Shown: one piece after another, positions 13,747 to 35,783 of the stretch
Layout of the letters: every line of letters starts with the position of its first letter
Numbering within the stretch: the stretch's first letter is position 1
UHGV virus genome: UHGV-0204626
From: a virus
Reading direction: 5' to 3' (one strand)
DNA: 39,893 nt
The notes under the pieces: generated by a model
The model's database searches: none
What the model was told of the DNA's origin: nothing
The model's input: only the letters and a program-made list of their open reading frames with translations
Made by a program: the position numbers and the translations under genes

Positions 13747-14270
13747 CTATCAAATCAAATACGCCAGCACACGACAAGGACTGCTGGCAAACGCCGCTTT
13801 GGCTTTTTGATGCACTGGATATTGAGTTTGGATTCTGGCTGGATTCGGCAGCGAGCGACAAAAATGCTCTGTGTGCTCACTGGCTAACTGAGGCCGACGA
13901 CGCGCTCAATTCTGAGTGGGTAAGCCACGGTGCAATCTGGAATAACCCACCGTACAGCAATATCAGGCCGTGGGTGGAAAAAGCCGCTGAGCAGTGCATA
14001 CAACAGCGACAGACGGTAGTTATGCTTGTGCCAGAGGATATGTCAGTCGGATGGTTCAGCAAGGCTCTGGAGAGTGTCGACGAAGTTCGCATTATCACTG
14101 ATGGACGGATTAATTTTATCGAACCATCGACAGGGCTGGAGAAGAAGGGAAACAGCAAAGGCTCCATGCTGCTGATTTGGCGACCGTTCATCAGTCCTCG
14201 ACGGATGTTTACTACCGTATCCAAAGCGGCATTGATGGCGATCGGGCAGGGCGTCAGGAGGGCGGCATGA
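13743..14270 (+). CDS. dam: Phage DNA N6-adenine methyltransferase (Dam-type)
   Basis: Start overlaps the ninB stop (ATGA); contains the catalytic NPPY motif (IWNNPPYS) and the CWQTP motif typical of phage N6A methyltransferases. Confidence 0.85.
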
Positions 14271-30271: not shown

Positions 30272-31621
30272 ATGGCTACGTGGCAACAGGGTATTAATTC
30301 TGGTGGTTTTCTGGCTGGCATCGGTACGCAAAATGAGAATGCGCCAAAGGCAAGCGACATTAACGCAACGCTTGGTCTGATCCGCGAAAACAATGAACTG
30401 GCTCGCTCAGGTGCAAATAACGTTGGCCTGACCGCGTTACGTGGTCTGGCTGGAGTTGCTGATATTTACAATCAGGAACAGCAACAGAAAGCGATTAATG
30501 CGTTCAATAAGGTTCATGCTGATGCATGGGCTTCTGGTGATCCATCGGGACTATTTAAGTTTGCCCAGGAAAATCCAGCGTTTGTTGCACAGGCACAACA
30601 GGCGTTTTCCGGTCTTAATGAGCAGCAACGCAACGATATGGGCGATTTAGCCATGAGGGCTAACGTCGCTCTTTCTCAGGGACCGGAAGCCTACAGTAAA
30701 TTCATTACTGATAACAAGGACAGGTTAAATCGCGTGGGGGCGAATGCTGACTGGATGATTCAGACAGGTATCCAGAATCCAGAGCAGCTATCACACATGT
30801 TGACTACTATGTCTCTCGGTGCACTTGGGCCAGAAAAGGCGTTTGCTGTTCAGGATAAGATGGTTGGTCGCCAACTAGAGAAAGGGCGATTGGATGAAAG
30901 CATCCGTCAGGCTGATATGGAGAATGCGAGAGGATGGGCAAATATCCAGAACGCTCAACTAGACAGGACTCAGCGGGCACAAATGCATAATGATAACGTA
31001 GCCCTGAAGTTGCAGGAATTAGGGATGAAACAACAGGAAAGCGGAAAGATTGACCCAAAACTTGTTCGAGATCTGAATAGTGATATTAATGGGTTCTCAA
31101 AGAATTATTCTGCAATGCGCAGTGCTTCTGACAACCTACAAGCCCTTGGGAAGCGCAACACTCCAGCCGCGCAGTTGGGAATGATTTTCAACTATATGAA
31201 ATCGCTGGATCCGCAATCTGTGGTACGCGAAGGTGAGCAAGTGCAGGTAAAACGCACTGATGGAATATTCGGCACACTTGGTAACTATGTTAGCCAATTA
31301 TCTAACGGCAAGATGCTGAATAATGAGCAAGTCCAAGACTTAATCAACACCTCAAAACTGATGGCAAATACTGAAGGCGAAAAGTTTAACCAGCAAATGG
31401 ATGATTATCTTTCAACTTATGGAGATTCTCTCCCCAGCGGACTAACTAAGCAATTGCAATCCAGAAAAGCCAAGCTGTATGAAGATATTCAGCAGCCTGC
31501 GCAACAACAGACACAACAAGCAACATCTGGCGGTCAAACATTTCGAGAAGGTATGACCGCGAAAAATCCTAAAACTGGTCAGAAAATTATTTACAGGAAC
31601 GGACAATGGCAACCAATGTAG
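30272..31621 (+). CDS. Ejection protein gp20-like
   Basis: 449-aa ORF at the conserved position, Gln-rich. Confidence 0.8.
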
Positions 31622-33759
31622 GTTTACCAGAGGGGTTTGTTCTTGATGAACAGCCTGATAACTCACAGCTTCCTGATGGCTTTGTGCTTGATTCCCAACC
31701 AGAACAGCAGCAATCTCCTTTGGTTTCACCAGAGGAAAATTCCAGACAGGAAAACGTGGTTAATAAAGCCAACGGTTTCGACCGTTTTATGTTTGGCGTT
31801 CTCAGTGGGTTGATGGATGTTGGTAAAGGTGTTGGCCTATTTCAGGATATGACACCAGAAGAGCAAGCCGCAATTCAGTCTCTACAGCAGAAGTTAGCGG
31901 CAAAACCATCAACCGCACAAGATGTTGGTGAGTTTGTTGGACAAGCAGCACCATTTGTTAGTGGTGGTGGGATTATTTCTCAGGTTCCGAAAGGGGCGGC
32001 AAGGCTGGCTGCCGCCGCAGGGCTTGGTGCTGGAGAAGGGGCTATTGTAGCCAATGGAACAAATAGCGATGTTGCTTCCGGCGCTGCTATTGGCGCTGTG
32101 GCTGGCCCCGTAGCCGAGATTGTTGGTCCAGCGCTTGGGAAGATTGCAGGAAAAATTAAAAATAGTGCCGGAGATATTTACCGCTCATCCGTAGGGATGG
32201 GTAGTAAATCATCTAAAGCAACGTTAAAGAAAGCTGCTGGCGCAATGGATAATAAATTTATTGGCGGGCAACGAGCTATTCAAGATTTCGCCGATGAAGT
32301 TAATCCTGATTTTAACGCGATAAATGCTATTCGTGAGCTAGAACTGGAAAATTATGCCACTCCAGGCATGATCTCTAATAATCCTGCTGTCAGGGCTCTT
32401 GATAATGCAGTGGCAAGTCTTCCTGGAACAGAGATTAGTGAGGCGCATAAGCGTTTTATTACTGAATTAGGAAGAAAAGCTGATGAAATGATAACTTCAT
32501 TTGGGGGAAGCCTTGATAAGCAACTGGTTTCTGACAGGCTTGCAGATAATTTTGATAAAACCATTTCATCATTACAAAATCAGTCAGATAACATCTACAA
32601 CAAAATTGCCGAAAAGGTTCCGGTAAGAGACCGGATTGAGGCCACTAATACGTTGAATTTTTTAGAGGATTTTGCTGATGACATAGGGGGAATTGATGAA
32701 TTATCTCCAATAATGAAGCGGACATTGAACCGACTTGATCCAAACACCTTGCCAACGTATGGGCGTTTAGATCTCGCCAGAAAGCAGGTTGGGCAAGCTA
32801 TTGGCAAAGGCTCTGGCCCATTCAAGGATGAAGAAACAGGTGTTCTTAAAAAGTTATATGCAGCTATAACAGATGACCAACAGGCTGTCGCAGAAAAATA
32901 TGGCGCAGGGGAGTTATGGACGCTTGGTAAGGAGTTGGTAAAAAAACGAAAATCCATTGAAGATGATGCCGTAACCGTTTTGGGTAGAAAACTTCAGCAA
33001 TCAGCAATTCCAAAAGTTGAAAGTGCCGTTGTTAATATGGCAAAAGGAAACGGTGGTGACTTTAGGCAATTAATGAAGTCAATTCCAAAGGATATGCGGC
33101 AGGAAGTTGCGCTCACTTCAATGAATAAAGCATTTACCAGCTATGCTAAATCACCAGGTCAGCAATTAGGGGTTGATGGATTTGTAAAATGGTATAACGG
33201 AATGTCACGCAATGGGGCCAATATGAAGGCTCTCCGTGATGCTATTGGCACAGATGCATCAAAGCGCCTTGATACGATTTATCAAGCAGCCAAGGCTATG
33301 AATAGACTCAATACTGGTAAGCAGTATGCTAGCAGCCTTGTGGATCAGCAAGTTAATAACTTTCTGAAGGAAAAGGGTAGTCTAGCAAAAATTTATGGAA
33401 TAGCCTCAAAAGCTGCTGCGGCGGAAGGTGTTACAAGCTTATCTGGTCTTCCTGGTGTAGGTGCAACAGGGGTGATAACGTCCGCATTGATGTCAGGGAA
33501 AACAAGCAGGATAAAGGCTGCTGATGCTCTACTGTCTTCTCCTGAGTTTAAATCAATGCTATTTCGCCTGCAAAACGCACCAGTAGACAAAGCAGAAGTG
33601 AGACGCGCAATAGAAAGGAAACTGATGCAATCTGGGGCATTTAAGAGATGGGAGAAAACCCTATCAACAGATGAAGCAAAAACCATAGCTCGCACTGGCA
33701 TTATTACATGGTTATCTCAGCAAGATACTACAGCCAGTGACGGCGACCAAAAGATGTAA
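31606..33759 (+). CDS. Ejection protein gp16-like
   Basis: 717-aa ORF, the last structural gene before the immI-like region; contains Gly/Ala-rich hydrophobic stretches. Confidence 0.8.
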
Positions 33760-33819: not shown

Positions 33820-34026
33820 CTATCTGTCAACTAAAGGACAATTGCTAATCCCCATGATCCCATTATCCGAGTACCAATAATTTCTGGAGAATTTTCCAGA
33901 AGCGCTTAGGTATTTACATTCAATCTTGTTACCGTCAGTTATTGATGAATATTTAACCCCATAACCAGTAAATGCAGACAAAACAAGTAAAAAGATTGCA
34001 AATAACCCAATAGTAAATTTTTTCAT
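33820..34026 (-). CDS. Hypothetical small secreted protein (signal peptide)
   Basis: 68-aa ORF with a classical N-terminal signal peptide (MKKFTIGLFAIFLLVLSAFTG); AT-rich gene. Confidence 0.5.
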   Translation of the reverse strand: MKKFTIGLFAIFLLVLSAFTGYGVKYSSITDGNKIECKYLSASGKFSRNYWYSDNGIMGISNCPLVDR

Positions 34027-34036
34027 ATCAACATCC

Positions 34037-34426
34037 TTAGCATTTTCTTTTTACTTTTCCAACAAAAGCTTTGGTTGAATCCATATTCCCATAACCAGAA
34101 ATGGTTTTCGACATTAAAACTGTTCCATTAGGATGTATTACCCATGAGTCGATAACTCGTTGAGTTTCGCCATTCGCGCCGATTCCAATGATGGAGTTTT
34201 TAGACAATGCTTTGTAAGCCATGCCGCCCGCATCTGTCCCAGAATATGTGATGCTGGCATCTTCACCGCTTGTCTTAATGATGAATGTTCCACTAAAACC
34301 ATCTTCTTCCGGATGGAAATTATTTCGTTCTGAATAGCTTATTCCGCGCATATCTCCAACGACCCAGCACTCTGCTGTAGCCCCAAAAGATATGAATAAG
34401 AACATAGCAGCAAGAAATTGCTTCAC
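34037..34426 (-). CDS. Hypothetical secreted / periplasmic protein
   Basis: Probable GTG start preceded by AAGAGG, giving the signal peptide (V/M)KQFLAAMFLFISFGATA; the six-frame ORF extends upstream to 34498. AT-rich; I do not recognise the protein. Confidence 0.55.
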   Translation of the reverse strand: MKQFLAAMFLFISFGATAECWVVGDMRGISYSERNNFHPEEDGFSGTFIIKTSGEDASITYSGTDAGGMAYKALSKNSIIGIGANGETQRVIDSWVIHPNGTVLMSKTISGYGNMDSTKAFVGKVKRKC

Positions 34427-34643
34427 ACCAACCTCTTTAGTTTTTCTAGTTACTTTGTCACGATAGGATATGCGAATTGATAAAACTAAATTGCGCACAT
34501 GATAACTCAGTAATAATTGTTAATGAAAACATGATCACCTATATTGCACAAGGCGAAACAGGAAGCATAATCTGGTTTCATGAGTGTGATCACGTTTGGG
34601 TAAATCAAAGTCAAGAGGAAATACTTGAAATTATCAAAAATAA

Positions 34644-35225
34644 CTATCTAAACGTTGCACACGACTCATCTATCCATTTTTCATAAAATTGTATACCGAG
34701 ATAGGCAAGAACAGATGGATGTATATCAACAAGCTTTTCGCCAAGATGTTCTGTTGGAGGTGGATAATCTTTGCCTTGGTTTCTTACGGTTATAGGCATA
34801 GTTGTTGCTGGATGAAACTCAACTATCATAGGGTCGCCTTCGTATTTTGCTATTTTCCCTGTTGAATCAATGATTAACTCTTTAATATAATGGCTTCTTG
34901 CTCCCGGAAATGCCCCAAGAGTAGTATAAGGAGGTTCAAGTTTTGAGATTTCCATAGTGGAATGATGATCAGCATTTCTTGCTTGGTGAAGGTAAGCAAG
35001 TGTTTTGTCTGTTTTTCTAAGCATGAACTTTTGGTTGAAGTGGCTGCTAAATTTTCCACTAACCGGCTTTGTTGCACAGAGCAACTTACTGAAAGACTTT
35101 TCTATATGCCCAAGACATTCTCGCCAGTGCATCTCAAAATCATCATGGTTTGTAGATGATTTCATCTGCTCTAGGCACTTTTTAGCTGCGATGATTTCTT
35201 TTTTTGCTGGGTTGTAATCGATCAT
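34644..35225 (-). CDS. Hypothetical protein (193 aa) co-transcribed with mnt
   Basis: Start ATG overlaps the mnt stop (ATGA), so translational coupling is likely; no signal peptide; AT-rich; I do not recognise the protein. Confidence 0.65.
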   Translation of the reverse strand: MIDYNPAKKEIIAAKKCLEQMKSSTNHDDFEMHWRECLGHIEKSFSKLLCATKPVSGKFSSHFNQKFMLRKTDKTLAYLHQARNADHHSTMEISKLEPPYTTLGAFPGARSHYIKELIIDSTGKIAKYEGDPMIVEFHPATTMPITVRNQGKDYPPPTEHLGEKLVDIHPSVLAYLGIQFYEKWIDESCATFR

Positions 35226-35470
35226 TTTGCATCCTTGCCATACATGGTTTTCAGCGTCTCAAGCAGCGCCTCTTTGAATTTATCAGCTTCTTGGTTAGCG
35301 AATCCTTCAAGTGAGCGAGAGCCATCAAGATTATCAACATGTTTTTGAAGGATAAGCACAATCTCTGAGTTCATTGATCTGCCGTTTTTATCCGCTTCTT
35401 GCTGAATGCGTTTCTTTAAATAGTCTGGAATCCTAATCCCCAATGGACTGATATCTCTTGCACCTTTCAT
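35222..35470 (-). CDS. mnt: Mnt-like ribbon-helix-helix repressor
   Basis: Internal Met start preceded by AGGAGGAGA; N-terminal RHH motif (...PLGIRIPDYLKKRIQQEADKNGRSMNSEIVLILQKH...) close to the P22 Mnt/Arc motif; divergent from the arc-ant pair. Confidence 0.75.
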   Translation of the reverse strand: MKGARDISPLGIRIPDYLKKRIQQEADKNGRSMNSEIVLILQKHVDNLDGSRSLEGFANQEADKFKEALLETLKTMYGKDAK

Positions 35471-35579: not shown

Positions 35580-35720
35580 ATGAAAGTTAGAGACATCGCT
35601 CCATTAGGGATTCGTATCCCGCCAGAGATTAAAGAAAAATTGAAGGAAAAGGCTAAGGAGGAGGGCAGGTCTTTAAATTCAGAAATAGTGCAGCGTCTTA
35701 TTCGCAGCCTAAAAAGTTGA
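35580..35720 (+). CDS. arc: Arc-like ribbon-helix-helix repressor
   Basis: 46-aa product from the internal Met (MKVRDIAPLGIRIPPEIKEKLKEKAKEEGRSLNSEIVQRLIRSLKS), preceded by GAGGTGG; RHH motif GRS.NSEI. Confidence 0.75.
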   Translation: MKVRDIAPLGIRIPPEIKEKLKEKAKEEGRSLNSEIVQRLIRSLKS

Positions 35721-35783
35721 AGCCCCAACTGCTGGAACAGTCAGGGCTTCGGTATCGTAAAACCACGCATAGGAATTAACGAC

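Follow-up and report, generated by a model that had tools for sequence, protein, structure and literature searches.

In P22, the slot of interest here lies between the leftward gene sieA and orf59a, and 85 bp of DNA upstream of sieA were found to be enough for SieA function (PMC10461980). The P22 annotation places PsieA 31–61 bp upstream of sieA, inside the 5′ end of a rightward ORF of 121 aa that occupies the same slot and corresponds to hkcC of HK620 (phrog_1365, E 1e-39); homologues of hkcC, 32–40% identical, are present in many phages. The P22 copy lies at positions 13861-14226 of BK000583 / NC_002371 (L057:662-1027, plus strand), where it is missing from the reference annotations; it encodes a HECAH (HExxH-like) motif and is introduced by AGGATA-N5-ATG. 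In phage L, the slot carries a rightward lipoprotein ORF. The region lies inside a single-promoter late operon (doi 10.1101/2020.10.05.325894).

The DNA analyzed in this study, a stretch of 39,893 nucleotides referred to below as the window, is a P22-like E. coli prophage, and the presence of a clear sar RNA between arc and ant confirms that it has an immI region of the P22 type (Table 1). An AT-rich spacer (33% GC vs. 47% for the window) separates the leftward cargo gene of this prophage, encoding a secreted protein, from a leftward gene for a protein of 193 aa, and a rightward frame of 69 codons, hereafter ORF69, runs through it from a TTG start to a TAA stop, as given in a program-made ORF listing. 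A preliminary description of this DNA had reported this frame; its position was confirmed, with a translation identical to that quoted, as was its overlap with the 3′ end of the 193-aa gene, which amounts to 43 nt. The gap had rightly been called AT-rich, but the length of 145 bp assigned to it would need the cargo GTG to be at 34498, and the actual length is approximately 217 bp. Our leading interpretation, to which we attach a probability of about 0.5, is that ORF69 is a coding sequence by descent, at present under weak constraint or none. Its main competitor, a serious one that we place somewhat short of even odds, holds that ORF69 is a chance ORF, and that the spacer is kept for its leftward signals (RBS, start, 5′ UTR and probably a PsieA-type promoter).

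Table 1. Features of the window in and around ORF69; the strand is left empty for features that have none.
Feature	Position	Strand	Remarks
gp16-type ejection protein	31606-33759	+	
YobH-like 68-aa gene	33820-34026	-	Pfam PF13996, E 8e-10; directly downstream of the secreted-protein gene
Secreted-protein gene	34037-34426	-	cargo of this window; 129 aa from GTG; phrog_2651
Cargo translation start	34424..34437	-	GTG 34426-34424, SD AAGAGG 34437-34432, 5-nt spacing; mosaic junction
AT-rich spacer	34427..34643		217 bp; common upstream region of the attached leftward cargo gene
Block retained in rearranged relatives	34458..34641		97.8% identity beside the secreted gene in L050-L052
AGGA Shine-Dalgarno-like core	34465..34468	+	8 nt upstream of the ORF69 start
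ORF69	34477-34686	+	TTG start, 69 aa, TAA stop
ORF69, domain-like part	codons 1-58	+	Lak-family match and model
ORF69, tail	codons 57-69	+	runs into the 3′ end of the 193-aa gene
Sigma-70-like TTCATT-17-TATCAT	34499..34527	-	8/12; only minus-strand match of the spacer
Promoter-like TTGTTA-17-TATATT	34517..34545	+	9/12; inside ORF69; best of the spacer
35-bp segment, 3′ end of 193-aa gene	34635..34669		perfect inverted copy after the block in L050-L052
193-aa gene	34644-35225	-	phrog_23516; last gene of the mnt-side operon; P22 orf59a position
sar antisense RNA	35715-35782	-	Rfam RF00262, 81 bits; between arc and ant
Further right-hand features			Mnt-like repressor, Arc repressor, Ant, tailspike gene

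The module extending from 34424 to 35262, which consists of the spacer, the gene for the 193-aa protein and the terminal part of the mnt-like gene, was found without gaps and at 98.8–99.5% identity in 21 complete genomes of E. coli, 15 contigs from IMG/VR and 4 contigs from metagenomes. Three alternative leftward cargoes abut the spacer exactly at the GTG, namely the secreted protein, SieA and a membrane protein of 106 aa, and the SieA of these sister prophages is 91% identical to that of P22. This mosaic junction, the SD AAGAGG and the alignment of the sister-prophage SieA with the 164-aa SieA of P22 place the start of the cargo at GTG 34424-34426. PGAP places the start of the window's cargo gene at ATG at 34405; it begins SieA (188 aa; L002:2009-2575, L038:1956-2522) and similar cargo ORFs at a GTG that lies 24 codons ahead of what is probably the true start. 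The resulting upstream extension, MRNLVLSIRISYRDKVTRKTKEVG, is probably 5′ UTR since it is common to three unrelated cargo genes. The spacer is a shared upstream platform for swapped cargo genes, comparable to the PsieA region of P22, and both the use of one start codon by three cargoes and the P22 precedent (PMC10461980) count in favor of ORF69 being a chance ORF laid over leftward signals.

The signals themselves are less persuasive. The spacer and the PsieA region of P22 have the RBS and start sequence AAACTAA(G/A)GAGGTTGGTGTG in common, but they are unrelated beyond approximately 20 nt upstream of the start, and the spacer has no good -35/-10 pair at the position of P22 PsieA. The minus-strand TTCATT-17-TATCAT, with its -10 located 73 nt upstream of the cargo GTG and its hexamers invariant in 44 loci, is predicted to be a weak candidate for a PsieA-type promoter; this one minus-strand match of 8/12 compares with 2.9 per strand expected by chance. 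Whereas an intrinsic terminator follows orf59a in P22, none was seen after the 193-aa gene, folding of the spacer gave unremarkable z-scores of -0.4 and -0.8 for the two strands, and a search against Rfam returned only the sar RNA, outside the spacer. The unconvincing promoter and terminator and the lack of RNA structure weigh against a spacer retained for its leftward signals. The earlier proposal that the gap holds a promoter for the downstream secreted genes thus draws its support from context, i.e., the three cargoes, PsieA of P22 and the retention of part of the spacer by phages without immI (see below), and not from the sequence, with its single 8/12 site at a frequency below chance; by analogy with P22, a leftward promoter within the spacer is plausible.

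Three Logan contigs (L050-L052) are missing the 193-aa gene and the entire immI region. The block that they retain beside the secreted gene consists of 19 nt that include the AGGA, together with codons 1-55 of ORF69, and it is followed by the inverted copy of the 35-bp segment (L050:3164-3198; likewise in L051 and L052), which is flanked by CAAAAAT/ATTTTTG. The ORF takes its tail, ending in ...ESCATFR, from this inverted copy and has a length of 62 aa; in L050, two terminator-like hairpins and then the tailspike gene come after the block and inverted copy. The inverted copy resembles the scar of a template switch or of an inversion-deletion, and as ESCATFR is native to the 193-aa family, the arrangement is considered to be derived. 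In these contigs the block is almost the sole room for a leftward promoter, and its retention by phages devoid of immI is a further argument that the spacer serves leftward signals and that ORF69 arose by chance.

The layout of ORF69 is that of hkcC. Each is flanked by a leftward cargo of the sieA type and by the final gene of the mnt operon, points rightward on the late strand, diverges from the cargo start, has an AGGA sequence upstream (AGGATA for hkcC), and is overlapped at its 5′ end by the cargo promoter region, a putative one in the case of ORF69. The existence of a precedent for a rightward gene in the slot counts toward a coding origin of ORF69. The two differ in that they have no sequence similarity and in that hkcC has many diverged homologues in phages while ORF69 has none; the lipoprotein ORF of phage L is likewise without similarity to ORF69. 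Given its location within the late operon, the plus strand should be transcribed regardless of the status of ORF69. Plus-strand RNA therefore cannot decide this status, and a lack of plus-strand transcription, offered in the preliminary description as a refutation, is a weak test.

As ORFs of at least 69 aa are common by chance, the length of ORF69 is uninformative. The window has 49 shadow ORFs (out-of-frame or antisense) of this size, and Markov-1 random sequence yields 39–90 of them per 39.9 kb, or approximately 1 per kb, in line with a chance origin. Also in line with it is the silence of PGAP, which left ORF69 uncalled in the seven RefSeq loci inspected; an extra annotated feature under the module match was absent from 21/21 matching genomes. 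Some pipelines do call ORF69, these being DFAST-type submissions (e.g., BEA27979.1) and metagenome gene callers, and this was counted on the coding side. The start codon is TTG in the window and in most copies, and ATG in 7 of the approximately 29 independent copies. The AGGA core preceding it is invariant in all copies, amid flanking positions (34457-34474) that vary. With 0.121 per codon, the codon log-odds of ORF69 exceed those of all 77 shadow ORFs, correspond to the 84th–95th percentile of composition-matched random ORFs and fall slightly under those of the adjoining accessory genes (0.16–0.22); GC content by codon position follows the order GC1 > GC3 > GC2. Both the SD-like AGGA and a codon score above that of every shadow ORF speak against chance.

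The variation among copies points in the opposite direction. Codons 2-55 of ORF69 show 1 synonymous, 8 missense and 1 nonsense change in approximately 29 independent copies, and two more missense changes fall in the overlap with the 193-aa gene; neutral expectation for ORF69 is 21% synonymous, 74.5% missense and 4.5% nonsense. The 193-aa gene, with 13 synonymous to 10 nonsynonymous changes (omega 0.23), is under purifying selection, and at its omega the probability of no more than 1 synonymous change in 10 is 0.006 for ORF69 (Fisher p = 0.02). Neither purifying selection on ORF69 nor an excess of synonymous changes was seen among the approximately 29 copies, and the species-representative genomes and viral and metagenome contigs scanned contained only module copies of 98–100% identity, with nothing more diverged for a selection test. 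The nonsense allele, W33 to TAG (G-to-A, equivalent to window position 34574), occurs in one metagenome contig (L055; ERZ808028 NODE-767) whose module is otherwise intact. The C-terminus is variable, with versions of 62, 69 and 105 aa. The neutral spectrum, nonsense allele and variable tail, together with the orphan status of ORF69 and its TTG start, argue against a selected gene, and the first three are also what a chance ORF would present. On the coding side were counted the integrity of the frame in all but one of the 29 independent copies and its persistence in the second genomic context of L050-L052.

When 1.84 billion representatives were searched exhaustively with phmmer, no relatives of ORF69 with more than 50% identity turned up beyond its own cluster; the output was composed of that cluster, repeat-driven artefacts and one short protein, P0016. 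The top matches (E 5e-9 to 1e-3) were to beta-propeller repeat proteins and were rejected as an artefact of summed copies of a YALNGEDGSLLW-type motif. P0016 belongs to a family (P0016/P0020) of uncharacterized proteins of approximately 140 aa from Prevotella Lak megaphages that consist of two tandem domains of approximately 68 aa; examples are Lak-B8 (MK250027.1 174849-175274, complement; L061:200-625) and L030-L033:4001-4429. The domain has the consensus FLKLHDADDNSVIIVN..ITL....T.IYI....I.VNE.PEKIY, and the tandem-domain gene has a TelA-like gene on its upstream side and nrdD on its downstream side. The E-value of 1e-4 listed for P0016 is the sum of two repeats, that of a single unit being 6–150 in the 1.84 billion proteins. 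A search of this extent that returns the cluster itself, a borderline family and repeat artefacts is what may be expected of a chance ORF.

The comparison with the Lak family as a whole gives evidence to the contrary. A profile of 12 Lak units scored 29.3 bits on ORF69, with 3.2 bits for the runner-up among 752 six-frame segments of the window, and hhalign matched ORF69 to the family with 96% probability over 57 columns (residues 2-58). For the profile score, composition-matched shuffles gave P ~3e-9, a value of doubtful significance at a database scale of ~1e9 sequences, and this composition-corrected value is consistent with a chance ORF. The profile score tops the best single-unit score by 5.7 bits. 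Shuffles scoring well on one unit drop by 6–7 bits on the profile, with 0/1685 reaching +5.7, while partial-copy decoys, carrying random positions of one unit, drop by approximately 10 bits and 0.3–0.5% of them reach +5.7; in evenness of similarity across all 12 units, 0/620 decoys match ORF69. The decoy test of the profile gain thus gave p ~0.001–0.005, and it is this gain that indicates that the similarity sits on conserved columns, as in true distant homology. A match that is equally good to all 12 units and rare among decoys is difficult to reconcile with chance, as is the end-to-end alignment, in which the Lak domain begins where the open frame has its first start codon.

ORF69 and the Lak unit are of equal length and 30–35% identical over residues 2-58, including KL..A.DNSVIIVN..(M/L)IT and V.VN....E.I., but the nine invariant residues of the Lak domain (L4, H5, D8, N10, T34, T47, N49, E50 and Y56) are largely replaced. 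ORF69 keeps three of them, L4, N10 and N43 (= N49), the last of which is S in L050-L052, the others being changed (H5 to N, D8 to H, T34 to S, T47 to W, E50 to Q and Y56 to L), and its beta3-beta4 loop is shorter. Moreover, ORF69, from a P22-like prophage of enterobacteria, has only one domain, whereas the Lak proteins are tandem two-domain proteins of approximately 140 aa; Lak-family entries of 68–81 aa are few and mostly from short contigs. When ORF69 was added to the profile, the search returned no intermediates beyond the Lak-like lineage, and searches of Pfam, NCBIfam, PADLOC and the sequences of the PDB gave nothing for ORF69. A match to phrog_3240 (E 0.035) was discarded, as it was gone with the 62-aa variant and had no fold tie.

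An AlphaFold model computed from 13 sequences (ORF69, two variants and ten single-domain Lak members) had a pLDDT of 87 and a pTM of 0.72, and is composed of five beta strands and a C-terminal helix. This pLDDT reflects the supplied family alignment rather than ORF69 alone; with a thinner alignment of 7 sequences the value was 55, too poor to use. When this alignment-dependent model was compared with viral models using Foldseek, it matched phage proteins of 59–81 aa described as ‘flagellar and swarming motility protein’ (TM 0.73–0.87, 20–29% identity), while Foldseek against the PDB returned only Sac7d-like matches with E ~0.3. The predicted fold, beta1-beta5 plus a helix, and the size of the protein are like those of FlbD/SwrD small phage proteins (e.g., N4 gp27) and of the RemA / LytTR-like small beta fold. 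ORF69 differs from the FlbD/SwrD proteins in having no sequence match, PF06289 (FlbD) matching neither ORF69, its variants nor the 10 Lak members even at E <= 10, and no link to the PHROG of N4 gp27, and its setting is a prophage accessory region flanked by the ejection-protein gene and the mnt operon rather than a flagellar one. As the resemblance is one of fold only, and the phage homologues have no known role, it says nothing on flagella.

A coding origin for ORF69 is favored because chance would seldom yield the match to conserved columns, the SD and the codon score; for the homology evidence, we estimate a probability of about 0.005–0.02 were ORF69 a chance ORF. Descent from a coding sequence combined with little constraint is preferred because it accounts for both the homology and the neutral variation. 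The preliminary description had considered a chance ORF to be more likely. Length, neutral variants, the lack of relatives above 50% identity and the silence of PGAP bear this judgement out, while the full-length match to conserved columns of the Lak domain and the FlbD-like model go against it, leaving the question near even, with a real but unconstrained or decaying small gene slightly more likely than a chance ORF. If the frame did arise by chance, its Lak resemblance would be a database-scale coincidence helped by a composition rich in N, I and D.

As a coding sequence by descent, ORF69 would be a single-domain and very distant relative of the tandem Lak domain. It may be expressed through read-through late transcription, with initiation at AGGA-N8-TTG/ATG, and by analogy of fold its product could be a small protein of the cytoplasm that binds DNA or a protein partner. 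It would be no more than a marginal accessory gene, possibly one in decay; the role of the same DNA that appears conserved is the leftward one, in which it serves the cargo, a gene expressed in the lysogen, as upstream platform with the RBS and start seen in the sequence and, presumably, a PsieA-type promoter. Within this interpretation, continued function and decay of ORF69 are about equally probable, with continued function slightly ahead.

The specific proposal that ORF69 encodes a micro-protein that is functional and expressed late, and that is truly homologous, as a single domain, to the Lak proteins, with the gene divergent over the cargo promoter and 5′ UTR as hkcC is over PsieA, we regard as unlikely; if true, it would define a new and very divergent FlbD/RemA-like branch common to a 40-kb enterobacterial podophage and to 550-kb megaphages of Bacteroidota. 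Very improbable, finally, is that the functional product is a rightward RNA from TTGTTA-17-TATATT, acting antisense to the 3′ end of the 193-aa gene or disturbing leftward transcription into the cargo and ending, in L050-type phages, at a hairpin-plus-T-run approximately 150 nt downstream: this promoter-like match ranks first in the spacer, the L050 block is followed by two terminator-like hairpins and the adjoining immI already has an antisense RNA in sar, but matches of 9/12 quality occur in the region at chance frequency (5 found vs. 6.1 expected), individual copies are altered in one or other hexamer, the L050 terminators belong to a derived rearrangement, and the spacer offers neither unusual folding nor an Rfam match.

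Little depends on ORF69 itself, and the more useful results concern its context. Were it real, it would add another small protein to the variable region between the ejection-protein and tailspike genes of P22-like phages, and would link that region to the Lak domain family with its FlbD-like predicted fold. The spacer emerges as an ‘expression platform’ where the cargo, be it SieA, the secreted protein or the small membrane protein, is exchanged exactly at the start codon, and hkcC, missing from the reference annotation, proves to be a conserved rightward gene in the equivalent slot of P22. The case also illustrates the inflation of E-values by tandem repeats in searches of very large protein collections.

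With respect to the flanking genes, the secreted-protein module alone (34033-34447) is present in approximately 250 of 5426 complete E. coli genomes, and also in Salmonella phages Emek and ST-35. The 193-aa protein is rare, being found in 7 clusters among 5.8 billion, with no match in Pfam, NCBIfam or PADLOC and none in isolated phage genomes; its invariant residues are W34, R70, D73, Y78, QAR81-83, D86, H88, PP156-157, H160 and G162, and it is a candidate for a lysogen-expressed function. The convergent neighbors of its distant homologues (62–30% identity) are unrelated, and hence ORF69 does not travel with the 193-aa family. Two TGATCA palindromes, at 34532-34537 and 34587-34592, each with a Dam GATC site, are located 55 nt apart in the spacer; they sit in GTGATCA repeats and are invariant in all copies.
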